Positions 380-38,470 of a stretch of DNA of 38,470 nucleotides are shown here, piece by piece (position 1 is the first letter of the stretch; each line of letters begins with the position of its first letter). The DNA is from a virus. Under the pieces are notes generated by a model, which had not been told where the DNA came from, searched no databases, and saw only the letters and a list, made by a program, of their open reading frames with translations. Location: positions 1 through 38,470 of IMG/VR virus record IMGVR_UViG_3300045988_038517; one strand, 5' to 3'. The position numbers were made by a program, and so were the translations under genes.

Positions 380-721
380 TTACTGCTTTTGTAGCGCTGC
401 CCTTGCGCGGTCAAAGAAAAACTGAATGACCTTGCTCATGGTCTCTTCGGTGATTGCCCAGCTGACCAGCTTGCCCCACCGGCTGTTGTTCAGATAGGTG
501 CGCAGCATCTTGACGCACCACGCCTTGCGCTCTGCGCCGCGCTTCGTGCCTTGAATCTCGCGCTCTGCTTGGTCGATAAGGTCAAGCACCAGCGTCTTGA
601 CCGCTGCGCCGTAGCCCAGACGGATAAGCCCCAGCACAAGCGACACAACGCCCACAACAATGAGCAACAGCGCCAGCCACGAGGGCAGCGGGGTGAGAAT
701 GGTGTTAAGGATTGCTTCCAT
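380..721 (-). CDS. Holin, LL-H-like (one N-terminal TM helix plus a charged C-terminal domain)
   Basis: 113 aa with TM segment WLALLLIVVGVVSLVLGLI followed by a basic/acidic tail. Size, topology and position beside the endolysin match LL-H-type holins. The start overlaps the upstream gene by 17 nt. Confidence 0.6.
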   Translation of the reverse strand: MEAILNTILTPLPSWLALLLIVVGVVSLVLGLIRLGYGAAVKTLVLDLIDQAEREIQGTKRGAERKAWCVKMLRTYLNNSRWGKLVSWAITEETMSKVIQFFFDRARAALQKQ

Positions 722-1094
722 GATTGGTTACTCCTTTCAGCAGGTAATTGTTAATGTCGGTCTTGCTTTTTTGCATACCTTCCCGGTTGTTGCCGGATAG
801 TTGCGCATCCAAAAGGTTCTGCACCCCAACGAGGACAAGTCGCATTTCTTCGTCAATGCCGTCAAATCGCCGGAGGTCTCTTGCAAGGGCCTGTGTGTGT
901 TGGAGCTGACCCTGTTCCAAGGTGCCGACGCGCTTGTCCAGCTCATCCAGCCGCTTGTTCTGCGCGTTGTCCGGAGCCTGTGCCTTCTTGATGTACTTAT
1001 GGATGATTTCCAGTACCTTATCAATCGTAATAGCAGCGGCGCACAGGCTGCCTAGGATGCCCAACACCCACAGCAAAGCTTCTTTTTCGCTCAT
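705..1094 (-). CDS. Membrane-anchored coiled-coil protein of the lysis cassette (function unknown)
   Basis: The real start is MSEKEALL, with an ATGA overlap onto the endolysin stop. It has an N-terminal TM helix (LLWVLGILGSLCAAAITI) and a long heptad-like region. The 298-aa ORF-track form is an out-of-frame run through the lysin gene. Confidence 0.55.
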   Translation of the reverse strand: MSEKEALLWVLGILGSLCAAAITIDKVLEIIHKYIKKAQAPDNAQNKRLDELDKRVGTLEQGQLQHTQALARDLRRFDGIDEEMRLVLVGVQNLLDAQLSGNNREGMQKSKTDINNYLLKGVTNHGSNP

Positions 1095-13586: not shown

Positions 13587-13662
13587 TGGTGCCGCTTGCA
13601 GGGGTCGAACCTGCAACTACCCGGTTATGAGCCGGGAGCACTGCCAGTTGTGCGAAAACGGC
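13587..13662 (-). tRNA. tRNA-Met(CAT), elongator-like (or Ile2 if lysidine-modified), CCA encoded
   Basis: Hand-folded as 76 nt. Acceptor GCCGTTT/AAGCGGC, D arm GCAC-AACTGGCA-GTGC, anticodon arm CCCGG-CTCATAA-CCGGG, variable TAGTT, T arm GCAGG-TTCGACC-CCTGC, A73, CCA. The G1-C72 pair and absence of a 3xGC anticodon stem argue against an initiator. Confidence 0.85.
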
Positions 13663-14422: not shown

Positions 14423-14779
14423 TTATCTGCGCCGTTTCTGAACACGCCCTGCAAGCCGTGAGGTGCGGGCCGCTTTTCTCGCGGCCAAATCAATGCCGCC
14501 GCCCGGCCCGGTTCCGTAACCAAGCGAATAATCCGGGCTTGCTACAAGTTCTTTGTTACGAGCGTCTTTAATTTTGTCCATTTTCGCCTTTGAAATCGGT
14601 TTAGCTTTTCCGTTCTTCAGAAGTTTGTTCGCCATTTCTTTTGAAATAATGTCATTCGCGTCTTGCAAACCTCGAAACTCTCCACCGGCGGCCTGAAAAT
14701 AGATTTTTTCTTTTCCACGAATCGTAATGGAAAATCCGCCGTTTGACCGTGTAGAACTTCCAGAGCCTCGTTTACTCAT
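14423..14779 (-). CDS. Hypothetical basic protein (possible head-internal protein)
   Basis: 118 aa, Gly/Lys/Arg-rich. Its start overlaps the Mu-F-like gene stop by 8 nt. Confidence 0.5.
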   Translation of the reverse strand: MSKRGSGSSTRSNGGFSITIRGKEKIYFQAAGGEFRGLQDANDIISKEMANKLLKNGKAKPISKAKMDKIKDARNKELVASPDYSLGYGTGPGGGIDLAARKAARTSRLAGRVQKRRR

Positions 14780-15806
14780 TTTTGGAACCCTCCTTTCTGC
14801 GTTTTCGTTCTTTTGCCCGCCACATCTGTTCGGCTTCCGTGCCGCCCTTTGCCTTGTACCACTCGGTATAGGTCAGGTCTCCTGTCCGCTCTTTGGTGAC
14901 GTTATCCCGCCGCATAGCGTTCTGCCGGGGATACTTGACCAGCGCACTGGACAGCTTGCACCGGCAGTGATAAACCATTTCCGGCGCTGCGTTGGGGTCG
15001 CCTGGGTACTGTATCTCGTAGCCCTGCACCTTGAAAGGCTCGTCTAGGTCTGCGGTTTCCTTATCCAGCAGGCGGTGCGTCTCGCGGGTGCGGTAGTCCA
15101 GTGTGCTGTTCCAACGCTTCTGCACCTCAATGCCAATGGCTTGGGCGTTGCGCAGTTGCTGCATCGTCCCTGCGTTCTGTGCGCCGGTAAGGGCTGTGAT
15201 GGCGTTGTTCATCGCCCAGTGCACCTCGCTGTCTGCCATGCCTTTCACGGCCTGTGTGGCGATGTCATGGACGCTTTTGCCCTGTATGATGCCTTTTGTG
15301 ACGTAGCGGTTGAATACCCGCGCGTCATAGGTGCGGTTGCTCTCGCTCTTGATGCGCTTGTTGGGCACAAGCTTGGGGTTTTCCAGCAGCAACCGCTTGA
15401 CCGCTTCGGTGTTGTACAAGGTCAGGTTGAACGTCACGCCTGCGGCCTGTTCCAGTTCGTAGAACGCCCAGTTTGCGCCAAGGGCAAAGATATCGTACTG
15501 CTCATCCCGCGCCAGCTTGTATGCCGTCTGCTGGGCTGTGGTGCACGTCTGGGTGATGTTGTCCAACTTCTGGCGCATCATCTCGGACTGAAACACCTGA
15601 TTCCGCAGCCATGTTCGGTAGTCGCTCTCGGTGATCTTCCCGGCTTCCAACTGCGCCCGCTTGTAGGCGTCCAACTTCTGGTAATGTTCCAGAAACTCGG
15701 TCAGCTGCTCGGTTATTTCCCGGCGGGCTGTTCCATAGACCCGCAAAATGCGGCGGCGCAGGCGGTTCAGCTGCCGGGTTGAGATGCGGTCAAGGTCGGT
15801 CGTCAT
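14772..15806 (-). CDS. Head morphogenesis protein, Mu F / SPP1 gp7 family
   Basis: 344 aa, immediately after the portal gene (ATGA overlap). Motif DYRTRETHRLLD...PGDPNAAPEMVYHCRCKL is typical of Phage_Mu_F. Confidence 0.85.
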   Translation of the reverse strand: MTTDLDRISTRQLNRLRRRILRVYGTARREITEQLTEFLEHYQKLDAYKRAQLEAGKITESDYRTWLRNQVFQSEMMRQKLDNITQTCTTAQQTAYKLARDEQYDIFALGANWAFYELEQAAGVTFNLTLYNTEAVKRLLLENPKLVPNKRIKSESNRTYDARVFNRYVTKGIIQGKSVHDIATQAVKGMADSEVHWAMNNAITALTGAQNAGTMQQLRNAQAIGIEVQKRWNSTLDYRTRETHRLLDKETADLDEPFKVQGYEIQYPGDPNAAPEMVYHCRCKLSSALVKYPRQNAMRRDNVTKERTGDLTYTEWYKAKGGTEAEQMWRAKERKRRKEGSKNE

Positions 15807-17194: not shown

Positions 17195-18850
17195 TTATTT
17201 TCCGGGCTTGTGCCACACAAGTTCCATGGCGTAGCGTGTAGCGTCTATGTGGTGGTTATCGTGGTCGGGGTATCCGGGCAGCGGCTCGCCGTTCTTGTCC
17301 GCGTCATACTCGTACTCGGTGAACTCCTTCAGAGTGTCCGGGCAGCGCACCGGGTCTATTACGATGGCGGTCAGACTTTGCAGCCACTTCACGCCCTGCC
17401 CAACGCTGTTCGGACCTTTTATCGCGGGCAAGCATTTCATTCCCCATGCAGTATAGTCGGTGCAGCTCTTTGGCTCGGCGCTGTCACCGGTCAGGCGCTC
17501 GCTCTCTGGGTGCTCCATAACGTGCCTGTCTTGCAGCATCTTGAACGTGTCCTCGTTTCGTGTGCGCCGCACGGTGATCTCGTCATAAATATACAGGGTC
17601 TTACGGGCTGCGTCGTAACTCATGCAGTTGTAGGCAAAGGGGTCAGGATACCAGCCCCAGTCAATGCCGTGGTACTTGCGCTCAAATTTGGAAGGGTCTA
17701 TCTTTTCTGCCTTGATGTTGGTGAAGATTTCCTTTCCGCAGCCGGTCACCTCGCCCAGATACTCGTGCTTGTAGGCGATCAGGTTGTGTTTCTTTAGATT
17801 TTCTGCATCATCAAGGAAACGCCTGCCAAGCCACTCCTGCGGCACCATCGTGTAGTCGGAGTGCTGGATGATCTTGCGGTCGCGCACTTCCAGAGCATAA
17901 CGGTTTGCCCAGTTACGGGGTGATGCAGGCGGGTTGAAGCTCTTGAACGTGAAAGAGAAATCTCCTCCACGCAGACAGGACTGTTCCACGTTGCGGATTT
18001 GTTCCTCTCCGTCATACTGGTCTAGCTCTTCAAACCATAGAATGCCGATGTATCCGCGCGGCAGTTTGATAGATTTGAGCTTTCCGGGGTCATCCAGACC
18101 AAAAAATAGAATCTTCTGACCTGTGTTTTTGTTTGTCATCTCCATTGGAGAGACCGTACATTTCCACATTCCGGGTTCCAGCTGGTCAACCGCCCACTGC
18201 ATCTGTGCATACACGGACGTTCGCAGGGTATTGCCCACCTTTCGGATGCATACCGCGTTGCAATCCGGGTGCAATTGCAAAAGTTTGATAATGCCGATGC
18301 TGCAGAAGCTGGATTTTGTGGATCCGCGTCCACCCTTTTCCAGCGCTTCGTCTGCATCGCCTCTCATGATCTTCTGCCATGTCGGCAGGAATTGCGGTGC
18401 CAAAAGCTCAAACAGCCTGTTTTCGGAAACTGCCGGGCTTGCGCTTTCGCTTTCTTCTGTTTTTTCCTCTTTGTTGTCCCAGCCAAAGTTAAACTTCAGG
18501 CTAAATTGTGCTCCGTTCGTTCCGTCCCGGTCGAACAGCCGCTCTTCGGAGTATTTTTCGCACAGGGCTTTTGCGCGCGTAATCGTGTTTACAAATTCCT
18601 GCTTGCCTTGATATTCCAGTAGCGATTTTCGCGATGCAAACCCCAAAGCCAACGCTAATCCGGTGACAGTGGGCGGGCGCTGATGCAGATAGATTTCATT
18701 TCCGTACTTATCCAGAATCGGAGCTCCATTCGCGTCCTGCAAGAGTTCTCCTTCGCAGTCGGAAAAGTAAGCATCTATCTTTTCCTGCATTTCTGCGGAA
18801 TTTTTATATTTCGGCGGTGCACCTACCGGATTCTTTTTCTTGTAGGTCAT
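17195..18850 (-). CDS. Terminase: small-subunit-like N-terminal module fused to a PBSX-type large subunit
   Basis: 551 aa from the ATG at 18850 (GAGGTGG RBS). Aa ~10-128 (GAPPKY..PPTVTGLALALGFASRKSLLEY..FSLKFNFGW) looks like a TerS DNA-binding module. An acidic linker follows, then Walker A KGGRGSTKS and a nuclease half. No separate terS ORF lies nearby. Confidence 0.85.
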   Translation of the reverse strand: MTYKKKNPVGAPPKYKNSAEMQEKIDAYFSDCEGELLQDANGAPILDKYGNEIYLHQRPPTVTGLALALGFASRKSLLEYQGKQEFVNTITRAKALCEKYSEERLFDRDGTNGAQFSLKFNFGWDNKEEKTEESESASPAVSENRLFELLAPQFLPTWQKIMRGDADEALEKGGRGSTKSSFCSIGIIKLLQLHPDCNAVCIRKVGNTLRTSVYAQMQWAVDQLEPGMWKCTVSPMEMTNKNTGQKILFFGLDDPGKLKSIKLPRGYIGILWFEELDQYDGEEQIRNVEQSCLRGGDFSFTFKSFNPPASPRNWANRYALEVRDRKIIQHSDYTMVPQEWLGRRFLDDAENLKKHNLIAYKHEYLGEVTGCGKEIFTNIKAEKIDPSKFERKYHGIDWGWYPDPFAYNCMSYDAARKTLYIYDEITVRRTRNEDTFKMLQDRHVMEHPESERLTGDSAEPKSCTDYTAWGMKCLPAIKGPNSVGQGVKWLQSLTAIVIDPVRCPDTLKEFTEYEYDADKNGEPLPGYPDHDNHHIDATRYAMELVWHKPGK

Positions 18851-18881
18851 TGCCACCACCTCTCAAAAAATCGCTTAAAAC

Positions 18882-18906
18882 AAAAGCCGCCCGAAAAATC
18901 GAACGG
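18882..18906 (-). pseudogene. tRNA 3'-half remnant (T-loop TTCGATT plus GGGCGGCTTTT)
   Basis: Minus strand CCGTTCGATTTTTCGGGCGGCTTTT aligns with the 3' half of the pseudo-tRNA at 19240-19264 (TGGTTCGATTCCAAGGGCGGCTTTT). No 5' half is present. Confidence 0.4.
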
Positions 18907-18921
18907 TTAAAATATCGAATG

Positions 18922-19057
18922 TGCCGCCAGCTGGATTTGAACCAGCACCCACGGAATGGATGTGCGCAGTGGTTGGCTGTGCAGTGATGTTCCCGTGGTG
19001 TCACCAACGTTGTCCCGCCTTAAATGGGCGGCGCTCTCCCAATTGAGCTATGGCGGC
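18922..19057 (-). tRNA. tRNA-Lys(TTT)-like gene with A at position 33 and a 68-nt insertion at the variable-loop position; no encoded CCA
   Basis: Hand-folded. Acceptor GCCGCCA/TGGCGGC (7 bp), TA, D arm GCTC-AATTGGGA-GAGC, anticodon arm CCGCC-CATTTAA-GGCGG. A 68-nt insert that can form a bulged hairpin follows, then T arm GCTGG-TTCAAAT-CCAGC and A73. Confidence 0.55.
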
Positions 19058-19160
19058 ATATAATAAGCAGCTTTGCCTGTCGTACACAAAGCCGCTGCAT
19101 CTGGAACTTTCGCGGCCAGATGCCCCGCTATCTGCGCAGCCCCCTCACAGGGTACGCAGC

Positions 19161-19236
19161 TGGCATTCCCGGCAGGGCTCAAACCTGCAGCCTGCGGTTT
19201 TGGAGACCGCTGTTCCATCACTTGAACTACGGGAAT
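19161..19236 (-). tRNA. tRNA-Trp(CCA), CCA encoded
   Basis: Hand-folded as 76 nt. Acceptor ATTCCCG/CGGGAAT, D arm GTTC-AAGTGATG-GAAC, anticodon arm GCGGT-CTCCAAA-ACCGC, variable AGGCT, T arm GCAGG-TTTGAGC-CCTGC, G73, CCA. Confidence 0.85.
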
Positions 19237-19242
19237 ATAAAA

Positions 19243-19310
19243 AGCCGCCCTTGGAATCGAACCAGCCGTGTCTACACACGCACCGCGCTCCAAACTGCGC
19301 TCAGGCGGCC
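19243..19310 (-). pseudogene. Degenerate tRNA-like gene (68 nt) lacking a functional anticodon arm
   Basis: The acceptor (GGCCGCC/GGCGGCT), D arm (GCGC-AGTTTGGA-GCGC) and T-loop TTCGATT are recognisable. The anticodon position holds only a 5-bp/4-nt hairpin (CGTGT-GTAG-ACACG), and the T stem has mismatches. Confidence 0.5.
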
Positions 19311-19344
19311 ATATAAAACAGCCCTGGTTCTCCGCCAGGGCTGT
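19311..19344 (-). terminator. Intrinsic terminator inside the tRNA cluster
   Basis: Minus strand 10-bp stem ACAGCCCTGG/CCAGGGCTGT with a 7-nt loop, followed by TTTTATAT. It abuts the 5' end of the pseudo-tRNA. Confidence 0.6.
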
Positions 19345-19460
19345 TGTTTGACGCACATCCCGTCGGGAAGTCTACCCACACCTTCAGGGATTCAAAGCTT
19401 TCTCTCGTAGCACGGGAGGTTAAGCGTGCAGCTTTGTGGGGGATGAGTCCATGCGCCATC

Positions 19461-19562
19461 TGGTGCGAAACCGTGGAGTCGAACCACGCGGAGAGGGAGG
19501 CGATCACCCTGCCCCATTCGCCCAGAACTGCCGTTCTGAACGGAGCCGTGCCGAAATCTCGC
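19461..19562 (-). ncRNA. 102-nt tRNA-like RNA with canonical acceptor, T arm and CCA but a non-canonical core
   Basis: Acceptor GCGAGAT/GTTTCGC (two G-U pairs), T arm CGTGG-TTCGACT-CCACG, A73, CCA. The 65-nt interior folds as CGG/CCG (7-nt loop), CAGAAC-GGCA-GTTCTG and GGCGA/TCGCC (14-nt loop). No 5-bp/7-nt anticodon arm could be drawn. Confidence 0.45.
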
Positions 19563-19732
19563 ATAGAATCAGCCCGCGAAACGTTGGTGATCTGTGCCTA
19601 CGGACAGCACAGGGCCGGAACGTTTGGGGGCTGCATTGCATCGGTGGGCCTTTTCGGCTCTGCCGATACTACTACAATACCACCGATTCCACTCAGGTGT
19701 CGATGATATCCACTGTCGAAAAGTACCACGAA

Positions 19733-30946: not shown

Positions 30947-31540
30947 ATGAGTTATTTTACGGCGGCTAAAATTGGCACTGCGCTTGCAAAAGCGCGTGTG
31001 GAAGCGGGCTTGAGCCAGCGGGAAATGGCGCACCTGATCGGAATGACCGAGCGCACCGTGCAGAACTGGGAAAAAGGGCAGTCAAGCCCAGACGGTGACG
31101 AGATCATGGACTGGTTCACCGCCTGCGGGGCTTCCCCGCTTGCTGCAATGCAAGAGATGCTGCACCCGGAGCTGTATCGGAAGCAGGCCACCAACATGAC
31201 GGACGAGGAGCTGGATGCAGCGATAGCGGGCTTTTTGGACACCTCTCCACGCATCGTTAAAGAAATGATTCTCTTCATCGTGCTGGGCAAACACGGCAGC
31301 TATCCCCCGGCGGCGATCGCCGAAATCTGCGCAAACCTTCACACGCCGCTGCAAAACAAGGTTTCGGTCTGCGGTCAGGTGCTGGATAACTATAACTGCG
31401 CCGTTGCCACCCATACGGACCCCGTGCCAGATGATGTGCACCCGCCGTTGGATTTGCTGGAGACCTCGTACAAGGCAGGCAAGGAAGCTTCCAGACGCGG
31501 AGAAACCGCCTATATGACCAAGAAAGGGCAAAAAGAATGA
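30947..31540 (+). CDS. XRE-family HTH protein with a C-terminal domain, translationally coupled to the integrase
   Basis: 197 aa. ..ALAKARVEAGLSQREMAHLIGMTERTVQNWEKGQSSP is an HTH_3 pattern. The stop overlaps the int ATG (ATGA). Confidence 0.75.
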   Translation: MSYFTAAKIGTALAKARVEAGLSQREMAHLIGMTERTVQNWEKGQSSPDGDEIMDWFTACGASPLAAMQEMLHPELYRKQATNMTDEELDAAIAGFLDTSPRIVKEMILFIVLGKHGSYPPAAIAEICANLHTPLQNKVSVCGQVLDNYNCAVATHTDPVPDDVHPPLDLLETSYKAGKEASRRGETAYMTKKGQKE

Positions 31541-32727
31541 ACTGTATCAGATGCAAGCGAGAGATCCCGGACGGCGCTGCATTCTGCCCATGGTGTGGCA
31601 AGCGTCAGCCGGAGACCGCACAGCCCGCGCAAAGAAAAAAGCGCCGCCGCCCAAAGGGCAGCGGCAGTGTGCGAAAATTGACCGATTCCCATAGATCCCG
31701 CCCGTGGATGGCCAGAACGGGCAAAGGAGAGCTTTTGGGGATGTTCGCCACGTCATCCGAAGCGGTCATTGCATTGGACGAGTACAACGCCAAGCATTCG
31801 AGCGTCGCGCGGATGCGGTACACCTTCAAGGATGTCTATGAACGATGGAATGCTGTGCATTTCAAGGAAGTGGGTGAAAATGGCCGGTACAGCTACGAGC
31901 AGGCATATACAAAGGCCTCTTCCCTCTGGGATTGCGAAATGCGGGAGCTGAAGACCGAGGACTATCAAAAGATCATCACTGAGCTGGCCGAGGCCGGGCT
32001 TTCGCGAAGCACCTGTGAGAAGCAGCGGCAGCTCTTCAGCCAGCTTTGCAAGTGGGCCATGCAGAACGATATCATCTCAATCAACTATGCGGAGGGGCTG
32101 AAGCTGCCCGCGCCCCCGCCCAAAAAGGAACGCACCCTCACAGACGAAGAGATCTCCAAGATTCAGGCTCTTGCCGATGATCGCAGCAAAAACAACCGGT
32201 TCCGCTTTACCGCTCAATTTTCCATTGTGCTGGTTTATACTGGGATGCGCATTGATGAGCTGCTTTCCATGCGCCGGGATGATGTGCATCTGGATGCCGG
32301 GTATCTGATCGGCGGCGAAAAGACCGATGCAGGCCGTCAGCGAATGATTCCAATTCTCGACCCCATCCGCACCATCCTGGCCGGTTGGATGCTGGATAGC
32401 CTGGGCAGCGAGTATCTGCTCCCAACGGCCAACGGGCGCAAGAAGGACGTGAACACGGTCGAGCATTCTTTCCGCCGGATGATGGAGGTCTGCGAGATCA
32501 ACAGGCCCAACACGCCGAAGGAAAAGCGCGTCACCCCGCATTCTCTTCGCCGAACCGCTGCGACCCGCCTTGTGGAAGGCAAGGCAGAACCGACTGCCGT
32601 ACAGGCCATTCTTGGCCACTCCGATTTCACCACTACGGCGGACTATTACACCGCCCACAGCACCGATTATCTGGCCGAAGAAATGAAAAAGTTCAAGTAT
32701 GTAAAGGAACAAAAAGAGAACAAATAG
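31537..32727 (+). CDS. int: Tyrosine site-specific integrase with an N-terminal zinc ribbon
   Basis: 396 aa. CIRCKREIPDGAAFCPWCG. The catalytic region has ..RIDELLSMRRDDV.., HSLRRTAATRL and ILGHSDFTTTADYYTA (R..HxxR..Y pattern). Confidence 0.9.
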   Translation: MNCIRCKREIPDGAAFCPWCGKRQPETAQPAQRKKRRRPKGSGSVRKLTDSHRSRPWMARTGKGELLGMFATSSEAVIALDEYNAKHSSVARMRYTFKDVYERWNAVHFKEVGENGRYSYEQAYTKASSLWDCEMRELKTEDYQKIITELAEAGLSRSTCEKQRQLFSQLCKWAMQNDIISINYAEGLKLPAPPPKKERTLTDEEISKIQALADDRSKNNRFRFTAQFSIVLVYTGMRIDELLSMRRDDVHLDAGYLIGGEKTDAGRQRMIPILDPIRTILAGWMLDSLGSEYLLPTANGRKKDVNTVEHSFRRMMEVCEINRPNTPKEKRVTPHSLRRTAATRLVEGKAEPTAVQAILGHSDFTTTADYYTAHSTDYLAEEMKKFKYVKEQKENK

Positions 32728-32757: not shown

Positions 32758-32807
32758 CTTGCTTCCCAAGCAGTAGGCGGCGGGTTCGAGTCCCGTATCC
32801 TGCTCCA
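32758..32807 (+). other. attP core: 3' portion (positions ~27-76) of a tRNA-Gly(CCC) gene
   Basis: CTTGC-TTCCCAA-GCAGT (anticodon arm, CCC), AGGCG, T arm GCGGG-TTCGAGT-CCCGT, acceptor 3' strand ATCCTGC, U73, CCA. No matching 5' half lies upstream. It sits 30 bp after int. Confidence 0.7.
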
Positions 32808-32812
32808 AAATA

Positions 32813-32860
32813 AAGCGGCAGAACGTCTCATTTTTGAGAGATTCTGCCGCTTTTCTTTTT
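32813..32860 (+). terminator. Intrinsic terminator following the tRNA fragment
   Basis: 11-bp stem AAGCGGCAGAA/TTCTGCCGCTT, extended by inner TCTC/GAGA pairs, then TTCTTTTT. Confidence 0.7.
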
Positions 32861-32928: not shown

Positions 32929-33261
32929 TCACATGGATTTGAGCCTGTATATAATCGAACTGTACTCTTTTGGGTACACAAGCTTTATACTATCCATGTG
33001 CTTGTCTAGCACCTCCATCAACCCGCTGAACGGCACAGCGCTTGCAGCCTCTACAAATTCGCTCTGCGGTTCTTGTGGTCTTGTGGAATACTCTATTTGT
33101 CTGGCTGGTTCAGGCTGCGGAGAAGAGCTGCTTTCCCGGCTTTCCGCTTCGCTCAGTTCATTTCTCACAGTGCAGAGGGCGGCAAGCTTTTCCACGCTCT
33201 GCCAGTTCGTTTCTTCGCATTTCAGTTTGCGGATGTGCTCGTTGATCTCCACGATGTCCAT
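32929..33261 (-). CDS. Cargo cassette gene 8: hypothetical protein
   Basis: 110 aa starting at MDIVEINEHIRKLKC. AAGGAGGGTGG RBS. Central Ser/Pro/Glu-rich linker. Confidence 0.5.
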   Translation of the reverse strand: MDIVEINEHIRKLKCEETNWQSVEKLAALCTVRNELSEAESRESSSSPQPEPARQIEYSTRPQEPQSEFVEAASAVPFSGLMEVLDKHMDSIKLVYPKEYSSIIYRLKSM

Positions 33262-33278
33262 GCCTGCCACCCTCCTTA

Positions 33279-33677
33279 TCACATACTGCGCAGAATGTCA
33301 AGAGCGCGCTTATACGCGTCACGCTCGTTGCCGGTCGCGTCCTGCATCATGTTTTCGATGTCGGAAATCATCCGTTCCCGGCCATCACCGCGCGAGTAGT
33401 GCCCGCGTACATAATGCCGCCCACGGTTTGCGTAGCTGTTGCCTTGGCCATAGTTTTCGGTACGTCCGTAGTTGCCGCGCATATCAGCTTCCCACTCACC
33501 AGCGCGGCTGTAATCGCCGTCCTCCAGCATCATGATCTTGTCGATGTTTTTGATGGTGTCGGTCAGCTTGTGAACGGTATCCAATGTACGCTCATTCAGG
33601 CCGTTCTTTGCATCGCGGTTGTACTCATCCAGCTCTTCGCAGAGCATTTCCCGCAGATTATAAAGATTCTTACTCAT
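33279..33677 (-). CDS. Cargo cassette gene 7: hypothetical protein with a Gly/Arg/Tyr-rich centre
   Basis: 132 aa with an AAAGGAG RBS. Helical ends flank ..RGNYGRTENYGQGNSYANRGRHYVRGHYSRGDGRE... Confidence 0.55.
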   Translation of the reverse strand: MSKNLYNLREMLCEELDEYNRDAKNGLNERTLDTVHKLTDTIKNIDKIMMLEDGDYSRAGEWEADMRGNYGRTENYGQGNSYANRGRHYVRGHYSRGDGRERMISDIENMMQDATGNERDAYKRALDILRSM

Positions 33678-33692
33678 GTTGTACTCCTTTCT

Positions 33693-34115
33693 TTATGCAA
33701 CGCGCTCAACAATCAGATTGCTATTTGCGATGCTGATCGCCTGCGCGCTGGTGTTTTTGAGCGCCACAGTAACGCAGCATCCACGGGGGACTTCCACGAA
33801 AACCTCCGTAAAGACGTTGCTGTACTGATCCACTGCCGCCGGGGTGACGATTGCGGTGGCGCTGTTGAGCGCCTCTCCGCCGACAGCCAGCGCCACAGAG
33901 ATAGCGCCCACAGTGCCCCCGGTAGGGATGGCGATGTTTCCGCCAAAGCTCACTTTGAACAGTGCTTTACACTGATTCGTAAGCCCACGCAGCGTCACAT
34001 TGCCAGCACCTGCTCGGTGGTTGATGCAGTTTGACCCCTTGATAGCGGTTTCGGTCAAGGGAAGATTCTGACCGGCTGCCACGGTCTGAATCGTGGTAGA
34101 GGTAAATTCAGCCAT
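33693..34115 (-). CDS. Cargo cassette gene 6: predicted all-beta (jelly-roll, BclA-C/C1q-like pattern) protein
   Basis: 140 aa starting at MAEFTSTT, with a GGAGGA RBS. The alternating pattern ..GNVTLRGL..ALFKVSFGGNIAIPTGGTVGAISVALAVGGEAL..VFVEVPRGCCVTVALKNTS..ISIANSNLIVERV suggests this fold. The fold call is a guess. Confidence 0.55.
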   Translation of the reverse strand: MAEFTSTTIQTVAAGQNLPLTETAIKGSNCINHRAGAGNVTLRGLTNQCKALFKVSFGGNIAIPTGGTVGAISVALAVGGEALNSATAIVTPAAVDQYSNVFTEVFVEVPRGCCVTVALKNTSAQAISIANSNLIVERVA

Positions 34116-34329
34116 TATTCGCGTCCTCCTTTTCTGCACAGACATCCGCTTTACTTGCATAGATGTTTTTCAGCACATCCATGCAGGAAGCCGAAAAGTC
34201 CGGTCGTTCAGTGTCCAGCAAAGTCCGCACGATTGAACTGTATACGCTCAGATCCATCATGCTCATTTTGTTTTTGTCCATGCTGGCCAAATGGTCAACA
34301 AACTGCTGCTTCAAGTCTGTTACGGTCAT
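34108..34329 (-). CDS. Cargo cassette gene 5: hypothetical small protein
   Basis: 73 aa starting at MTVTDLKQQF. AAAGGAG RBS. 8-nt overlap with gene 6. Confidence 0.5.
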   Translation of the reverse strand: MTVTDLKQQFVDHLASMDKNKMSMMDLSVYSSIVRTLLDTERPDFSASCMDVLKNIYASKADVCAEKEDANNG

Positions 34330-34443
34330 TTGAATGCTCCTTTCATAATAAAAACGCCGGGACTGCTGCCCCGGCGCTCTGGTTTGCAAAATCAGCTCTG
34401 GGGCTGAACAGGCTACAAATTGTAGTCAGTTGCCGTGATTCAG

Positions 34444-35292
34444 TTATGCGCAGCTGCCGCAGCCGGTCCCACAGCCATAGTAAATGGCGTTGGGGTTGGG
34501 CACCTGATAGGCAGGCACGGGAGCTTTCTGCTGCAGAGTCCCGATGATCTGGTTGGTCTGCGCGTTCATCGCGGTGGTCAGGAACGCGCTCTGGCGATCC
34601 TGAGAAGCAGCCCGGCGCAGCTCGTTGTTCTCGCTCTGCAGGGTGGCGATCTTATCATTGGTCAGGAAGTCGAGCACCGCGCGGGTGTTGCTGTTCTGAT
34701 TCTCGATGATGTCCCTGGTGTTGTTGTTCATGGTGTTCTGAGTTGCGCAGAAGCCCTGCTGCATCTGGTTCCGGGTGTCGCACTCCTGCGTGGCCATATT
34801 GTAGTTGACGCCCTGGATCGCGGTCTGGGTCTTGCAGCAGCAGTCTGCCAGCTGTGTAGCCAGAGCATTCTGCCCCTGCATCAGCGCAACGTTGGTGCTG
34901 TTGAAGCCCTGCTGCATGGCGTTGGTGACACCGTTCAGGCCCTGCTGCACGCCGTTGAAACCCTGAAGCATCCCGGTGTTCATGGCATAAAAGCCATCAC
35001 ACAGGCCGCTTTCCAGCCCGTTTAGCTTGTTCATGACGCTCTGGTTGTCGAAGCCGCGCTGCAGGTCTGCCTGGGTCACTGCGCTGGTCATATAAGGCGA
35101 AGCACCGCCCATGCCCATACCGCCGCCCCAGCCAAAGCCGCCCATGCCACCCCAGCCGAACATGCCGAAGATCAGAAAGAGGACAATCCAGCCCATCCAG
35201 TCGCCGCCCCAGCCATTACAACCATTGTTATAGCTGTTGTTGGCAGGCTGCACCGGCATGGTCAGGACTGCGCTATCGGAAGATAAAGACAT
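34444..35292 (-). CDS. Cargo cassette gene 4: membrane protein with a Gly/Trp-rich TM region, Q/N-rich QGF repeats and a Cys-rich C-terminus
   Basis: 282 aa with an AAAGGAG RBS. ..NGWGGDWMGWIVLFLIFGMFGWGGMGGFGWGGGMGMGG.. Repeated (L/M)QQGF(N) units follow, and the protein ends YYGCGTGCGSCA. Confidence 0.6.
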   Translation of the reverse strand: MSLSSDSAVLTMPVQPANNSYNNGCNGWGGDWMGWIVLFLIFGMFGWGGMGGFGWGGGMGMGGASPYMTSAVTQADLQRGFDNQSVMNKLNGLESGLCDGFYAMNTGMLQGFNGVQQGLNGVTNAMQQGFNSTNVALMQGQNALATQLADCCCKTQTAIQGVNYNMATQECDTRNQMQQGFCATQNTMNNNTRDIIENQNSNTRAVLDFLTNDKIATLQSENNELRRAASQDRQSAFLTTAMNAQTNQIIGTLQQKAPVPAYQVPNPNAIYYGCGTGCGSCA

Positions 35293-35345
35293 AATCTTGC
35301 TCCTTTCGTGTTTTTTGAAACATTTATTCTAAATGCGGCCGCATT

Positions 35346-35570
35346 TTAGAATCCAAACATGTTTTTCATGCCGTTGAGCATCGGCGCGATCTGCTGCGCC
35401 CGCTGCTGAATGGCGTTGAGCTGCTGTTGTGAGAGCTTCCCTGAAGTGAGCATCTGGTTTATCATCTCCTGCGGGTTCTTGCCCTGCATCTGGCCCATAA
35501 ACTGTTGAAACTGCCCGCCAATGGGGTTCTGGGTCTGTCGGCCCATCGAGTTATACAAGCTGCTGCTCAT
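35346..35570 (-). CDS. Cargo cassette gene 3: small Q-rich protein
   Basis: 74 aa with an AAAGGAGAG RBS. ..GGQFQQFMGQMQGKNPQEMINQMLTSGKLSQQQLNAIQQRAQQIAPMLNGMKNMFGF. Confidence 0.55.
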   Translation of the reverse strand: MSSSLYNSMGRQTQNPIGGQFQQFMGQMQGKNPQEMINQMLTSGKLSQQQLNAIQQRAQQIAPMLNGMKNMFGF

Positions 35571-35573
35571 CGT

Positions 35574-36014
35574 TTAGCTCTCCTTTTCCGGCTCTTGTGC
35601 TTCCTGCTTCTCCAACGCCGCCAGCTTTGCCGCCAGCGCATCGAACTCCTTACGGGTGACATACTCCCCGCCTGCGGCTTGCGTGGCTGCAATCGACGCT
35701 TTGGGACCTCCGGTGCGTTCCTTGTAGTCGTAGATGCGGAGCGGGAACGGCCTGCCGTCCTGCCCAACCTCTTTGATGTAAAATGTATCGGAATCGGCAT
35801 CCAGTAAAAGCACCCGGCTCCCGTTGGCGACCAAATATCCGCGCGCTGCAGCCTCGCCCTGCACCCAGATAAAGCCGCTGTCAGCCGGTGCGGCCTGTGC
35901 CTGCATTGCCGGCATCATGACAGGCTGAGGCTGGTATTGCGCCGCCCGGAGTTGTTCCAACTGCCCCTGTGGCTGTTGGTAGTACGTCTGCGGGTATCCG
36001 TTATAAATCGGCAT
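35574..36014 (-). CDS. Cargo cassette gene 2: P/Q-rich N-terminus, small beta domain and C-terminal coiled coil
   Basis: 146 aa with an AAGGAGGA RBS. ..GFIWVQGEAAARGYLVANGSRVLLLDADSDTFYIKEVGQDGRPFPLRIYDYKERT.. is a motif I have seen in Firmicutes phage proteins of unknown function. Confidence 0.55.
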   Translation of the reverse strand: MPIYNGYPQTYYQQPQGQLEQLRAAQYQPQPVMMPAMQAQAAPADSGFIWVQGEAAARGYLVANGSRVLLLDADSDTFYIKEVGQDGRPFPLRIYDYKERTGGPKASIAATQAAGGEYVTRKEFDALAAKLAALEKQEAQEPEKES

Positions 36015-36017
36015 TGC

Positions 36018-36395
36018 TTAGTCCTCCTTATACCAGTAGTAGATCGGGCACTCCCTGCCGCTGTCCCAGCTGTCCCACCACTCGCCGTTGACCACAGCCA
36101 GAACGTGACCAGAGCAGCCCAGAACGTAGATCCCGCGCGGGCACTCCCTTGCAAAATCCTCCACGGTATAGCAGGTGGAGCAGTCTGCCTCGACAAGACG
36201 GCGCTTGAATCCGCGCTTTTGGAGGTACGCGCCCCATGTGCGGTTAGCGCTTGGCATATCGCCCAACGCATAGCCCATCATTGCAAGCCCTACATACGCC
36301 TGCTCCCAGCTTTGCCCGGTGGCAGCTGCAACGGCTCGCACTGCACAGTCTCCGACGCTGCTGCCGCGCGGGTTTGGGTTGAACTTGTGCCACAT
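36018..36395 (-). CDS. Cargo cassette gene 1: predicted papain-like/C39-like Cys-His peptidase-fold protein
   Basis: 125 aa with an AAAGGAGGGG RBS. FNPNPRGSSVGDCAVRAVAAATGQSWEQAY (Cys) ... GIYVLGCSGHVLAVVNGEWWDSWDSG (His) is a widespread phage family. The catalytic assignment is inference. Confidence 0.6.
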   Translation of the reverse strand: MWHKFNPNPRGSSVGDCAVRAVAAATGQSWEQAYVGLAMMGYALGDMPSANRTWGAYLQKRGFKRRLVEADCSTCYTVEDFARECPRGIYVLGCSGHVLAVVNGEWWDSWDSGRECPIYYWYKED

Positions 36396-36465
36396 GAGCG
36401 CCCCTCCTTTTGCGGTTATCGTACCAGAATGTCACACCGGGAGAGACAACGAGCGCCAAACGAAG

Positions 36466-36512
36466 GACAAAAAAGAAAAGCGCCCACACGGCATTACACC
36501 GCGTGAGCGCTT
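36466..36512 (-). terminator. Strong intrinsic terminator between the RHH gene and the cargo cassette
   Basis: Minus strand AAGCGCTCACGCGG-TGTAAT-GCCGTGTGGGCGCTT forms a ~14-bp stem with G-U pairs, followed by TTCTTTTTTG. Confidence 0.7.
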
Positions 36513-36532
36513 AATTTTTCAGCTATTCTATT

Positions 36533-36799
36533 TTACAGATTCTTGATTTGTTCTAGCAATGCAGCCCGCCGAACTTCCGTCTCTGCATCCCCCGGCGGCG
36601 CTTCTGGCTCTTCCGGCACGGGGTGGGCGTCAATATAGTCCCGTACCGCCTGCTGTAAAACGGCGTTCGAGGTCGTATCTTCTGCCGCACAAGCCGCTTT
36701 GAACTTGTCAGCAACTTCCTTCCTCACCTTGCAGGCCAGCACCGTCATGTTCTCTTTGTCCCATTTTGCGTTTGCTCTCTTTTGAGATTCCGAAGTCAT
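36533..36799 (-). CDS. Ribbon-helix-helix (Arc/Mnt/CopG-like) regulator
   Basis: 88 aa starting at MTSESQKRANAKWDKENMTVLACKVRKEVADKFKAACAAEDTTSNAVLQQAVRDYI (strand-helix-helix pattern). AGGAGG lies 7 nt upstream. It is divergent from the antirepressor operon. Confidence 0.7.
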   Translation of the reverse strand: MTSESQKRANAKWDKENMTVLACKVRKEVADKFKAACAAEDTTSNAVLQQAVRDYIDAHPVPEEPEAPPGDAETEVRRAALLEQIKNL

Positions 36800-36841
36800 G
36801 CTTTTACCTCCTTTCAATTTGCGGGATAACTTCCCGATGCT

Positions 36842-36847
36842 ATTATA
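36842..36847 (-). promoter_or_regulatory. -10 element (TGaTATAAT, extended -10-like) for the RHH gene
   Basis: Minus strand ..ggtgTGATATAATagc.., about 45 nt upstream of the ATG. The -35 is weak. Confidence 0.4.
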
Positions 36848-36862
36848 TCACACCTTCTACAC

Positions 36863-36937
36863 TGTTTACACCATAAAATTAAACAAAATTATGCGGTAAA
36901 CATTATACAATGTGACAATTTACATATGCTGTAAACC
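36863..36937. promoter_or_regulatory. Operator-like TGTAAAC / GTTTACA half-sites in the divergent RHH-antirepressor control region
   Basis: TGTTTACA at 36863-36870, GTAAACA at 36896-36902, TTTACA at 36919-36924 and TGTAAAC at 36930-36936. The last pair forms TTTACA-5-TGTAAA across the -35 of the plus promoter. Confidence 0.45.
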
Positions 36938-36947
36938 GTATTATAAT
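36919..36947 (+). promoter_or_regulatory. Sigma70-type promoter TTTACA-17-TATAAT for the antirepressor operon
   Basis: 5/6 match at -35, 17-nt spacer and a perfect -10. A ~160-nt leader contains a 13-bp imperfect inverted repeat AATCCGCAAGCTG/CAGCTTACGGATT. Confidence 0.6.
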
Positions 36948-37105
36948 AGATGCATTGAAGCGAGGTGAACAAAAAAAGAAAATCCGCAAGCTGTCTGCAT
37001 CCAAACTTTCAGCTTACGGATTCCAACCATCAGAGGTTACTCTTTGGTAAAGCTATTATACCAAAGTCGGCGACCTCTTACAAGAGAATAAGAGGTATTT
37101 TAGCA

Positions 37106-37390
37106 ATGAACACACCAAAAATCACGAAAGCGGAGCTTGAACTGGATGCTGTTTCTGGTGAACTTCGAGTAATGCACGACCTACTGAACATCTTTGCAAA
37201 CTGGTTTGAGGAGACCCACAAGACCGATATGATCAAGCGGGAGCGCACCAGCGAGCTTGTGAGCCAGATTTGGAGAGAAGCCCCGATGTACAACTCTTTG
37301 ATTACGGCTTTGTTTGCATCCATCACCGGTCTGGAAAAGGAAGTCGATGCAGTTCTGGACGCAGAGATTGCACAAGGGGTGAGCGCATGA
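37106..37390 (+). CDS. Hypothetical protein, first gene of the antirepressor operon
   Basis: 94 aa starting at MNTPKITKAELELDAV. AAGAGG lies 10 nt upstream. The stop overlaps the next ATG (ATGA). Confidence 0.5.
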   Translation: MNTPKITKAELELDAVSGELRVMHDLLNIFANWFEETHKTDMIKRERTSELVSQIWREAPMYNSLITALFASITGLEKEVDAVLDAEIAQGVSA

Positions 37391-38193
37391 ACGATTTGCA
37401 GATTTTTAACAGCCCTGACTTTGGTAGCATCCGCACACTGGTTGAGAATAACGGCAAGGTGCTTTTCTGTGCCGCAGATGTAGCAAAAGCGCTTGGTTAC
37501 GCAAAACCTCAGAACGCAATCGCCACTCACTGCAAGGGTGCCCTGAAACGGGGCATCCTTACCAATGGCGGTGAGCAGGAGATGAATTTTATCCCGGAGG
37601 GCGATGTAATCCGCCTTATCACCCACAGCAAGCTCCCTAATGCCGAAAAGTTTGAGAGTTGGGCATTTGATGAAGTGCTCCCGCAGGTGTTGCGCACTGG
37701 CAACTACTCTGTCAAGCCCGAAACTCCTGAACTCACCCTCTCCAAAGCACTTGTCATGGCACAGGGCATCATTGCAAGGGAACAGGAGCGCTCCAAACAG
37801 CTTGAAAAGGAAAACGCCAAGCTCAAGCCCGCTGCCGAGTACGCCCACAATATGCTTTTGAGCGATGAAACGCTTACTGTGACGCAGATTGCGTTAAACT
37901 TTGGCATGACCGCCAACAAACTCAATAAGTTACTGGAAGAATGGGGAATCCAGAAGAAGGTCAACAAGCAGTGGATACCCAAGCGCAAGTACATCGACAA
38001 GGGTTATACAGTGAGTATTCCTGTTGAGGTGGGCAACGGTGAGACCAAAGAGAACACCCGCTGGAGCCGCACCGGACAGGCGTTTATCTACAAGCAGATG
38101 CACGACCACGGATATTTGACCGTGAAGGAACAGGCAGAGTCGAAAGCGAAGGAACGCAAGGTGATTCCCGCCCCTGCTGAGCAGTCCGCGTAA
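37387..38193 (+). CDS. Antirepressor, Bro-N domain plus KilAC/ANT-type C-terminal domain
   Basis: 268 aa. N-terminal LQIFNSPDFGSIRTLVENNGKVLFCAADVAKALGY..P.NAI..HCK is the Bro-N signature. The C-terminal ..TVTQIALNFGMTANKLNKLLEEWGIQKK is an ANT/KilAC-like HTH. Confidence 0.85.
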   Translation: MNDLQIFNSPDFGSIRTLVENNGKVLFCAADVAKALGYAKPQNAIATHCKGALKRGILTNGGEQEMNFIPEGDVIRLITHSKLPNAEKFESWAFDEVLPQVLRTGNYSVKPETPELTLSKALVMAQGIIAREQERSKQLEKENAKLKPAAEYAHNMLLSDETLTVTQIALNFGMTANKLNKLLEEWGIQKKVNKQWIPKRKYIDKGYTVSIPVEVGNGETKENTRWSRTGQAFIYKQMHDHGYLTVKEQAESKAKERKVIPAPAEQSA

Positions 38194-38235: not shown

Positions 38236-38351
38236 CAAATATCCACCCTAATGCGCTTCTTTGAGAGGCCGAGCGGATTTCGTTAGTTTAATTTTATCAC
38301 ACATCCAGCATTTTATCAATAATTTTTAGCCTATTGCCGATTGATGTCCGG

Positions 38352-38470
38352 CAATACGGCACACGCGCTGCAATATCAACTTGGCATAGCTGGTCAACGT
38401 ACCGCAACCGGGCGATTTTCCGGTCATACCTCCCAAGCGGCGCACGTTTTATCACAGCTTTTATCTGTTC
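38352..38470. repeat. Terminal overlap, copy 2 (identical to 1-119)
   Basis: Exact 119-bp match to the window start. This fits circular-assembly overlap or terminal redundancy. Confidence 0.95.

Follow-up and report, generated by a model that had tools for sequence, protein, structure and literature searches.

The closest described counterparts of the locus considered here belong to several kinds of system. Morons and prophage defence loci lie beside integrases, as in lambda (bor and lom) and in mycobacteriophages, and the immI region of phage P22 pairs Mnt with Arc-Ant. The exosporium proteins ExsF (ExsFA) and BxpB and the C-terminal domain of BclA are C1q/TNF-type trimers of the Bacillus cereus group, and the papain fold is shared by the C39 peptidase domains of ComA and PCAT, the NlpC/P60 amidases and the spore transglutaminase Tgl. 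Features that recall each of these are found together in a virus record of IMG/VR (IMGVR_UViG_3300045988_038517), and the whole stretch of 38,470 nt that was analysed is referred to below as the window. The locus is an operon of eight minus-strand genes, here called g1 to g8. An earlier note, made from the sequence alone, had described it as an att-proximal cargo cassette behind a ribbon-helix-helix (RHH) gene and a strong terminator, and had suggested lysogenic conversion of the envelope or spore surface, with exclusion or defence as the alternative. Comparison with related loci shows that the cassette, once the RHH gene is set aside, represents in Faecalibacterium phages an accessory operon that is mobile and autonomous and occurs in siphophages of Clostridia.

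All eight open reading frames (ORFs) are present, encoding products of 125, 146, 74, 282, 73, 140, 132 and 110 aa, and the lengths, coordinates, tight spacing and strong ribosome binding sites (RBSs) given for them earlier are correct. The intergenic distances from g1 to g8 are 3, 3, 53, 114, -8, 15 and 17 nt, with a strong Shine-Dalgarno sequence before each ORF. Each of the eight exact proteins also exists as an independent public gene call, in every case named 'hypothetical protein'. The motifs that had been quoted were all recovered, namely GDCAVRA, SGHVLAVV, the Gly/Trp-rich segment, the QQGF repeats (at a spacing of 11 residues) and the YYGCGTGCGSCA end. Glutamine accounts for 10–22% of the residues of g2, g3 and g4, versus 4.4% in the remaining phage proteins, and none of the cassette proteins carries a signal peptide. 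Searches with Pfam, NCBIfam and PADLOC profiles returned nothing usable for the eight proteins or for the RHH protein, while six of the cassette proteins match PHROGs families, all of 'unknown function'. The impression that the genes have no obvious place in the phage life cycle thus held up, in that Pfam, PHROG, PADLOC and NCBIfam gave no match to a structural, replication or characterised defence family.

Loci for comparison were pooled from 80 of the IMG/VR loci with g4, loci with homologues of g1 or g6, a scan of one genome per species and a set of annotated phages; individual loci are cited by L numbers. Genes were counted by searching the window and 161 loci (162 sequences in all) iteratively, and many absences reflect contig ends. 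The membrane protein gene g4 was present in 154 and g6 in 155, followed by g2 (127), g7 (124), g1 and g3 (123 each), g8 (62) and g5 (25). Gene order is constant, running g1-g2-g3-palindrome-g4-terminator-(g5)-g6-g7-(g8), and g4 and g6 are neighbours in every locus. This order is kept while protein identity between lineages drops to 30–65%. The constant core consists of g2, g3, a palindrome with a GGCC centre, g4, a terminator and the C1q/TNF-like g6, with g7 and g8 usually after it and g1 usually first. The neighbourhood survey therefore supports the earlier view of a coherent gene set, which is co-inherited at these loci. In all, the operon was located in over 600 viral contigs and in 69 Clostridia or Bacilli genomes, and the range of the module takes in Oscillospiraceae, Lachnospiraceae and some Bacilli.

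A sceptical reading would be that there is no system at all, and that small, unrelated moron genes have become chance neighbours at a recombination hot spot. In keeping with this, g5, g8 and the RHH gene come and go, homing endonuclease genes occur inside the block, and g1 is also found as a solitary gene in Tsamsa-like Bacillus phages, Geobacillus phage GBK2 and Lak megaphages. However, the order g2-g3-g4-g6-g7 is maintained across deep divergence and at three genomic positions, g1 and g2 occur as natural fusions, and the internal palindrome and terminator are conserved. Because of this conserved synteny the reading is largely refuted, and we regard it as very improbable.

The polymorphism of the locus was surveyed with the endolysin as anchor. 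Behind one and the same leader, at least four versions of the operon were found in phages whose lysins are 83–94% identical and whose small helix-turn-helix (HTH) genes are 62–98% identical. Variant 1 is the type found in the window. In variant 2 (L180, L186, L207) g1 (97%) and g6 (88–95%) are retained, while g2 (51%) and g3 and g4 (40–42%) have been replaced as a block. Variant 3 (L177) has no g1, a g4 with 38% identity and a Cys-rich 123-aa beta protein in the place of g6, and variant 4 (L206), which also lacks g1, combines g2', g3' and g4' with a different BclA-C-like protein of 142 aa. Similarly, phages with tail and lysin genes 85–98% identical have operon alleles with only 37–42% identity, or lack g1 and g6. 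Given four variants among such close relatives, the locus is dispensable in detail, recombines in sub-blocks and diverges much faster than its flanks.

Genes for endonucleases of the HNH/AP2 type have been inserted at the g3/g4 and g6/g7 junctions (L001, 10738-11289; L180, 16901-17725 and ~14700-15339; L242, 9518-10312). The same two junctions are those at which blocks are exchanged between phages. The contig of variant 3 (L177) is 68.5 kb long and, judged from the sequences, encodes ParA-like and Rep-like proteins (17358-19591), and it may be a phage-plasmid.

We tentatively interpret the operon as a polymorphic, membrane-anchored accessory complex under diversifying selection, with superinfection exclusion or defence as its most likely function, and would assign this interpretation a probability of roughly 0.4. 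An envelope function of the exclusion or defence type is suggested because close relatives carry very different alleles behind the same leader. It is favoured further because rapid allelic turnover is combined with insulation by terminators and, in temperate phages, an att-proximal position. The exclusion-or-defence alternative of the earlier note is compatible with the strong polymorphism.

The genomic positions of the operon have to be set beside this interpretation. In Faecalibacterium prophages the tail genes are followed by a GH25 endolysin, an SPP1-type holin, a small HTH gene, a variable block on the opposite strand, the operon and then host DNA, the last being replaced by the integrase in the circular form. 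In Dulem virus 33, L088, L107 and Butyrivibrio virus Ceridwen the endolysin is followed by a holin-like gene, a small HTH gene, a terminator and then g1 onward. The operon is co-oriented with the late genes in all loci. Several further observations speak against exclusion or defence. In L091, g1 begins 3 nt past a Dp-1-type holin gene. In a large low-GC lineage, comprising 38 of the first 80 loci together with L112, L121 and L123, the operon is found inside the head-gene cluster, flanked on one side by the genes for portal and minor capsid protein 2 (Pfam E 3e-75) and on the other by those for scaffold and major capsid protein. There the minor-capsid-protein gene and g1 overlap at the stop codon of the former, and genes for a transmembrane and coiled-coil protein and a small HTH protein stand between g1 and g2. 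Late, high-level expression is implied in this lineage, because of the overlap with the capsid stop codon and the place between portal and scaffold. The structural neighbours of g1 are statistically weak (Foldseek E ≥0.13, TM-score ≤0.49), and in PADLOC-DB 2.0 the cassette yielded only two sub-threshold ZorA coiled-coil matches, both for g4 (E 0.03–0.07). Exclusion systems usually consist of one or two genes, not five to nine. Finally, the full operon set is present in the isolated phage Ceridwen, which has no integrase, for which only lytic growth has been seen and which its authors regard as virulent (PMC7372960).

The operon has been found in three settings, namely behind the lysis genes, within the head cluster and immediately after a holin gene, and its arrangement indicates a mobile unit that carries its own HTH gene along. 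The head-cluster and behind-holin positions and the presence in a probably virulent phage also keep alive the possibilities of a lysis or a virion function, and they disfavour a purely lysogenic role.

As a late accessory of lysis or release, the operon would form the tail end of the late operon and work with holin and endolysin in timing, in membrane disruption or fusion, or in release from the envelope. This would fit with its orientation and with its usual place directly downstream of the endolysin and holin genes, as well as with its presence in Ceridwen. Directly behind the GH25 endolysin of the window lies a gene (705-1094, minus strand) for a 129-aa protein with a transmembrane segment, a coiled coil and an SGNN motif, which was found in 64 loci and matches no Pfam or PHROG family. 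A homologue of this lysis-cassette protein lies inside the head-cluster module (L045, 8548-8853), so that it has moved there alongside the operon. Nevertheless, in many lineages a conserved strong terminator parts the module from the lysis genes, near-identical lysins accompany very different or reduced module variants, and no spanin-type step is expected because the hosts are monoderm. We consider a lysis role rather unlikely.

Alternatively the proteins may be associated with the virion, g6 as a trimeric decoration or fibre knob and g4 as a protein that is ejected, inserts into the host membrane and is matured by g1. This is supported by the lineage in which minor capsid protein 2 and the scaffold and major capsid genes flank the operon. 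Knobs of the C1q/TNF-like kind are common on phage fibres, and in L088 the operon follows a giant polyvalent protein, a type that is packaged and injected. Yet in most phages the operon comes after the lysis genes and behind a terminator, and PHROGs places none of the matching families in its structural category. Alleles with 37–42% identity beside tail and lysin genes with 85–98% identity are also unlike parts that must fit a conserved particle, and a virion function appears quite improbable.

The control elements of the operon accord with the interpretation as an insulated accessory unit. The strong terminator noticed upstream of the cassette (36466-36512, minus strand) is an intrinsic terminator with a 16-pair stem at 36478-36512 and a following T run, and its hairpin is retained in loci that have other upstream genes. 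To count such elements, a hairpin with a T run was looked for within 160 nt upstream of a gene, and distinct upstream regions were scored. Such a terminator-like hairpin precedes g1 in 49 of 104 distinct regions and g6 in 65 of 119, whereas the same test before g4 and g7 gave 1 of 113 and 1 of 94. In the window the hairpin after g4 is CGCCGGGG...TCCCGGCG followed by T5 (34350-34376, minus strand), and a bidirectional terminator with a 24-nt inverted repeat, I1, separates g8 from attP and the integrase (32807-32858). Because the counts are high before g1 and g6 and close to nil before g4 and g7, the predicted layout is terminator, g1-g2-g3, palindrome, g4, terminator, g6-g8, terminator.

The leader of about 80 nt (36396-36477, minus strand) consists of TTTTTTGTCCTTCGTTTGGCGCTCGTT, a -10-like box TGgTACGAT and AAAGGAGGGG, which contains the RBS. 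The TTTTTTGTCCTTCGTTTGGCGCTCGTT part is a TTCGTT-N5-TTCGTT direct repeat, imperfect in the window, and the -10-like box reads TGaTATGAT in L082. The leader is conserved regardless of the upstream gene and is present as one copy per locus in 78 loci, including loci with a different module variant. A search across the genome for a second copy, which might have linked it to a late promoter, found none. The leader offered no place for a sigma-A promoter with canonical -35/-10 spacing. The sole promoter element recognised there was a -10-like or extended -10 box, and for this reason we do not claim a mapped promoter. The separate control proposed earlier for the cassette is nevertheless borne out in its outline, as a unit bounded by the terminators at 36478-36512 and 32807-32858 and equipped with its own predicted promoter-like leader.

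The perfect 16-bp palindrome reported between g3 and g4, AAATGCGGCCGCATTT (35331-35346), is a conserved element with a GGCC centre, 38 nt upstream of the start of g4. By estimate, about 0.6 palindromes of 16 bp are expected by chance in 38 kb. The exact palindrome recurs in about 50 loci, including Dulem virus 33, the proteins of which are 42–64% identical to those of the window. In other lineages the palindrome is a different one, again perfect and centred on GGCC (for example CAATCTGGCCAGATTG, AATCGTGGCCACGATT and AAAACGTGGCCACGTTTT); it lies 31–52 nt before the start of the g4 ORF, with an A/T-rich TAAAT box behind it. Among 53 distinct g3-g4 spacers, 41 contain arms of at least 7 nt and 33 have the GGCC centre. 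An ordinary intrinsic terminator was considered for this element and set aside, since a T run is lacking and the centre is always self-complementary. Both arms change jointly and the centre stays self-complementary, a pattern that favours a DNA-level element, for example a protein-binding site, over a plain RNA hairpin.

The first 119 nt of the window are identical to positions 38352-38470, which leaves 38,351 unique bases. Because of this terminal repeat, the window represents a complete phage genome of 38,351 bp, circular or terminally redundant. Its late operon on the minus strand runs from the terminase through the tail genes to the GH25 endolysin (1091-1813), the transmembrane and coiled-coil protein described above and a holin-like protein (380-721). 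Past the holin-like gene the circular junction is crossed, and a small gene for a protein resembling sigma-70 region 4 follows, ending at 38297. The 3' part of this HTH gene (38297-38470, minus strand) continues over the junction to about 120-230 of the window and so spans the 119-nt overlap. Its product has weak matches to Pfam Sigma70_r4 and to a PHROG of sigma factors. Homologues of the small HTH gene stand just upstream of g1 in L001, L088, L096, L097, L107, L108 and Ceridwen, and within the module in L045. This sigma-70-region-4-like gene, of regulator type, is found with the module in most lineages.

A plus-strand antirepressor block (36965-38193) separates the sigma-region-4-like gene from the region with the RHH gene and the cassette. 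The RHH gene (36533-36799, minus strand), which the earlier note had placed at the head of the cassette, was found in only 7 of the 162 loci and is not part of it. Its matches to RHH_10, ParG and Arc-like profiles are weak and below curated cut-offs. It has an extended -10 box, TGATATAAT, at 36842-36850 and its own terminator, and it diverges from the antirepressor operon, the two (window 36533-38193 together) sharing one control region of ~170–300 nt. Because this layout is that of the P22 Mnt/ant pair, we assign the gene to the antirepressor control region, where it is probably a Mnt-like partner of the divergent operon. The likeness to P22 immI lies in the divergent arrangement, which accounts for the gene better than a place in the cassette would; the locus differs in that the RHH profile matches are weak here and that other relatives have an antirepressor without this RHH gene.

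The att-proximal location of the cassette was confirmed by comparing the window with the integrated prophage L082 and with circular forms. Identity between phage and host stops within the host tRNA-Gly(CCC) gene (L082, 12486-12561), and this break places the attP core at 32760-32809 (plus strand), 120 nt beyond g8. The shared part corresponds to the 3' ~50 nt of the tRNA gene. The only Rfam match in the region is a sub-threshold, tmRNA-like one (E 0.2) inside the att tRNA fragment. In integrated copies, the products of flanking host genes match DnaB_2, IstB_IS21/Bac_DnaA, VanY, M16 peptidase, LGT, L21, L27 and Obg. The neighbouring tyrosine integrase (31537-32727) has an N-terminal CxxC...CxxC extension that resembles a zinc ribbon (MNCIRCKREIPDGAAFCPWCG). 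Elsewhere in the late region, the gene at 1826-4093 (755 aa) has a G+C content of 35–37% versus ~55% for the genome, its versions in relatives are 41–92% identical, and by these signs it appears to encode a tail fibre or receptor-binding protein and to have been acquired recently. Two phage tRNA genes lie on the late strand, for Met(CAT) at 13587-13662 and for Trp(CCA) at 19161-19236.

The product of g4 (34444-35292, 282 aa; phrog_16490 at E 3e-62) is the only cassette protein with a membrane-type hydrophobic segment, its hydropathy maximum being 1.69 at residues 36-54. It is built from this Gly/Trp-rich segment, a Q/N-rich helical region of ~200 aa with the 11-residue QQGF repeats, a CCC motif, a PxPAY..P motif and a Cys/Gly tail. 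Relatives occur in more than 598 IMG/VR contigs. In 32 diverse homologues we found a shared WWIIxLFLF flanked by Gly, Trp and Asn, the CCC, NTRDIIDNQNAN and AASQxAQN boxes, and a nearly invariant PxPVPAYxVxNP motif and Cys/Gly tail. The comparison of the N-terminus with small YjcZ-like sporulation proteins did not stand, since neither NCBIfam (E ≤0.1) nor Pfam (E ≤1) gave a match, and the likeness is confined to composition. Translation with table 11 breaks the g4 homologue into two or three ORFs in metagenome-assembled genomes (MAGs) of low-GC 'Bacilli' and Clostridium (L119, 5291-6118; L134, 9313-9984). These were taken at one stage for two or three copies of g4, an idea that was dropped because the split ORFs look like interrupted reading frames. 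The splitting could be due to an alternative genetic code, stop-codon recoding or pseudogenisation.

Two features of g4 are relevant to the lysis alternative. I-spanins have the same layout of transmembrane segment, coiled coil and Cys residues. A family profile of g4 (positions 45-140) gave ~160 weak matches against the PDB, the best with E 0.012 and 18 bits, and all 60 matches listed are to the fusion peptide and helix A of influenza haemagglutinin HA2. These matches are below significance and probably an effect of composition. The g4 and HA2 layouts are similar, in that a Gly-rich hydrophobic segment precedes a long helix.

The protein encoded by g6 (33693-34115, 140 aa; phrog_20016) was described earlier as an all-beta protein reminiscent of BclA-C/C1q-type jelly rolls, and this view is supported by structure. 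Its AlphaFold2 (AF2) model (pLDDT 88) was matched by Foldseek to solved members of the fold in the PDB, namely the C-domain of F-BclA (9h38, E 4e-6), ExsF (9h3d, TM-score 0.74), BxpB (8d02), ExsFA (7r1m, TM-score 0.75) and BclA (1wck). The matches to exosporium proteins have probability 1.0, E-values of 4e-6 to 1e-4 and TM-scores of 0.65–0.75, and TNF-family ligands, C1q and phage fibre knobs appear further down the list. In BFVD, many gut-phage proteins of 130–145 aa have the same fold, some of them named 'BclA protein'. Profile searches gave no match to Pfam (BclA_C, C1q) or the PDB. Conserved Cys residues are Cys30, Cys49 and Cys113-Cys114. Relatives form at least 8000 protein clusters at 90% identity, and a variant 99% identical to that of the window occurs in at least 1000 Faecalibacterium prausnitzii contigs. 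The g6 protein is thus like ExsF, BxpB and BclA-C in fold, in its ~140 aa and, with ExsF, in standing alone, but its identity to them is only 9–16%, it comes from phages of non-sporulating hosts and it has no collagen-like partner. ExsF binds a peptide of the F-Anchor N-terminus (PDB 9h3d title). The parallel in the operon is the nearly invariant Pro-rich motif near the C-terminal end of g4; trimer formation and docking of g6 are predicted.

The likeness to exosporium proteins is one argument for lysogenic conversion, in which the prophage would express genes that remodel the cell or spore surface, for instance as an exosporium-like layer with an enzyme for cross-linking or processing. A set made up of two Cys-rich proteins (g4 and g6), three Gln-rich ones (g2 to g4) and the papain-fold g1 recalls the cross-linking of spore coats by Tgl and GerQ. 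ExsF, BxpB and BclA-C are the closest solved structures to g6, and the operon has its own terminator and leader at the prophage end next to att. In Lachnospira intestinalis CLA-AA-H89B (L109, 7427-7915) a prophage with the module abuts a sigF/sigG-like gene that keeps only regions 3 and 4. By analogy with skin in sigK, this suggests that the element interrupts a sporulation sigma gene. On the other hand, the cassette includes only one membrane protein and lacks signal peptides, and no profile match to YjcZ, GerQ, Tgl, BclA_C or DUF3992 was obtained. Faecalibacterium and Butyrivibrio fibrisolvens, the main hosts, do not sporulate. For this reason the spore-surface role put forward before is not upheld in general, and the spore hypothesis was dropped as an overall explanation. 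As for the wider idea of a conversion module, the att-proximal bounded unit stands, whereas the operon in the late head cluster, behind the holin of L091 and in an integrase-less, probably virulent phage does not fit, so that conversion seems improbable.

The first gene, g1 (36018-36395, 125 aa; phrog_3754), encodes a putative minimal papain-fold protein with a candidate triad of Cys17, His97 and Asp108, all invariant in 40 homologues. In the AF2 model (pLDDT 95) helix 17-26 begins with Cys17, and strands 97-102 and 105-108 contain His97 and Asp108, respectively. Papain-fold enzymes head the Foldseek list (ComA C39, Josephin, PCAT1, staphopain and Tae4; E 0.13–1.2, TM-score 0.42–0.49). Pfam, NCBIfam and PDB profile searches gave no peptidase-family match, and Pfam was equally negative on the 40 homologues. 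The papain/C39-like assignment made earlier can consequently be kept as far as the invariant residues and the weak structural neighbours, led by ComA C39, are concerned, but lacks a clan CA profile match. As in C39, NlpC/P60 and Tgl, the Cys is at the start of a helix and the His and Asp are on following strands; g1 differs in having only 125 aa, no transporter partner, TM-scores below 0.5 and an activity that is predicted only. Its Gln-rich neighbours recall GerQ, the substrate of Tgl. The family includes 3823 representative relatives.

The second gene, g2 (35574-36014, 146 aa; phrog_21718), combines a P/Q/Y-rich N-terminus, a small beta domain and a C-terminal coiled coil. A PDB profile search with g2 and Pfam searches with seven g2 homologues found nothing. 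Natural g1-g2 fusion proteins exist in the public set (P0383, P0427), and on this ground the enzyme-like g1 can be tied to its neighbour g2. The proteins of fusion type are P0383, P0427, P0414 and P0447, among them tandem g1-g1 proteins with an N-terminal hydrophobic anchor. The product of g3 (35346-35570, 74 aa; phrog_22984) contains 22% Gln. Among the remaining genes, g5 (34108-34329, 73 aa) is a variable accessory gene with no family match in Pfam or PHROG. In an alignment of 32 homologues, g7 (33279-33677, 132 aa) consists of two helices on either side of a disordered core rich in Tyr, Arg, Gly and Ser (RGxHYVRGHYSR or RDSMGRYS), and it has no PDB or Pfam match. The optional last gene, g8 (32929-33261, 110 aa), encodes an acidic helical protein with homologues in Dulem virus 33 and Ceridwen.

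If the operon is indeed a membrane-anchored complex for exclusion or defence, its parts might work together as follows. The g4 protein would be anchored in the cytoplasmic membrane through its single Gly/Trp-rich segment, with the Q/N-rich helical stalk and the Pro/Cys-rich tail probably on the cytoplasmic side, because positive charges are absent from its N-terminal flank and signal peptides from its partners. A g6 trimer could dock on the Pro-rich tail of g4, in analogy to the docking of the F-Anchor N-terminal peptide by ExsF/BxpB, and the conserved Cys clusters may form cross-links or metal sites. BclA probably attaches similarly, through a Pro-rich N-terminal motif. The g2 and g3 proteins would co-evolve with g4 as a replaceable block, and g1, acting on or with g2, might be a protease or might cross-link Gln-rich partners in the manner of a transglutaminase. 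A candidate for control of the leader is the small HTH protein, and the operon would be expressed from its own promoter and not as part of virion assembly. We infer the topology of g4, the docking of g6 and the role of g1. A more detailed proposal, which we hold to be rather doubtful, is that a membrane-anchored, Gln/Cys-rich fibrous assembly with an exosporium-type C1q/TNF trimer cap, papain-fold maturation and its own sigma-region-4-like factor makes up an exclusion or defence system or an envelope layer built by the phage. Such a machine would diversify fast among sister phages and would act in bacteria that rank among the most abundant in the human gut.

In the literature on Faecalibacterium prophages and on BclA or exosporium proteins of phages we found no description of this module; the Mushuvirus preprint concerns a different phage. 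The operon is a good candidate for a novel function of phages, because none of its components could be assigned to a described family and its combination of parts is not known from any multi-gene system; the function proposed for it is an interpretation. Its five to nine proteins lie outside described families despite being widely prevalent in the phages of gut Clostridia. A gene order that is conserved while alleles turn over to an extreme degree among sister phages bears the signature of an arms-race function. A role in exclusion or defence would mean a new type of multi-gene system and would help to explain competition between phages in key butyrate producers, while a role in lysis or in the virion would reveal an unrecognised step in the life cycle of Clostridia siphophages. 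The gene boundaries, the candidate triad, the candidate docking pair of g4 tail and g6, and a candidate regulator and operator can be tested now, and Butyrivibrio virus Ceridwen provides a culturable model.

Among described elements, the morons and prophage defence loci that lie beside integrases offer the most general comparison. Like them, the operon is bounded by terminators, has a predicted promoter and is inserted between conserved modules; it is likewise att-proximal, dispensable and exchanged among close relatives. It differs from them in having five to nine co-evolving genes instead of one or two, and in being found also within a head-gene cluster and in a probably virulent phage.

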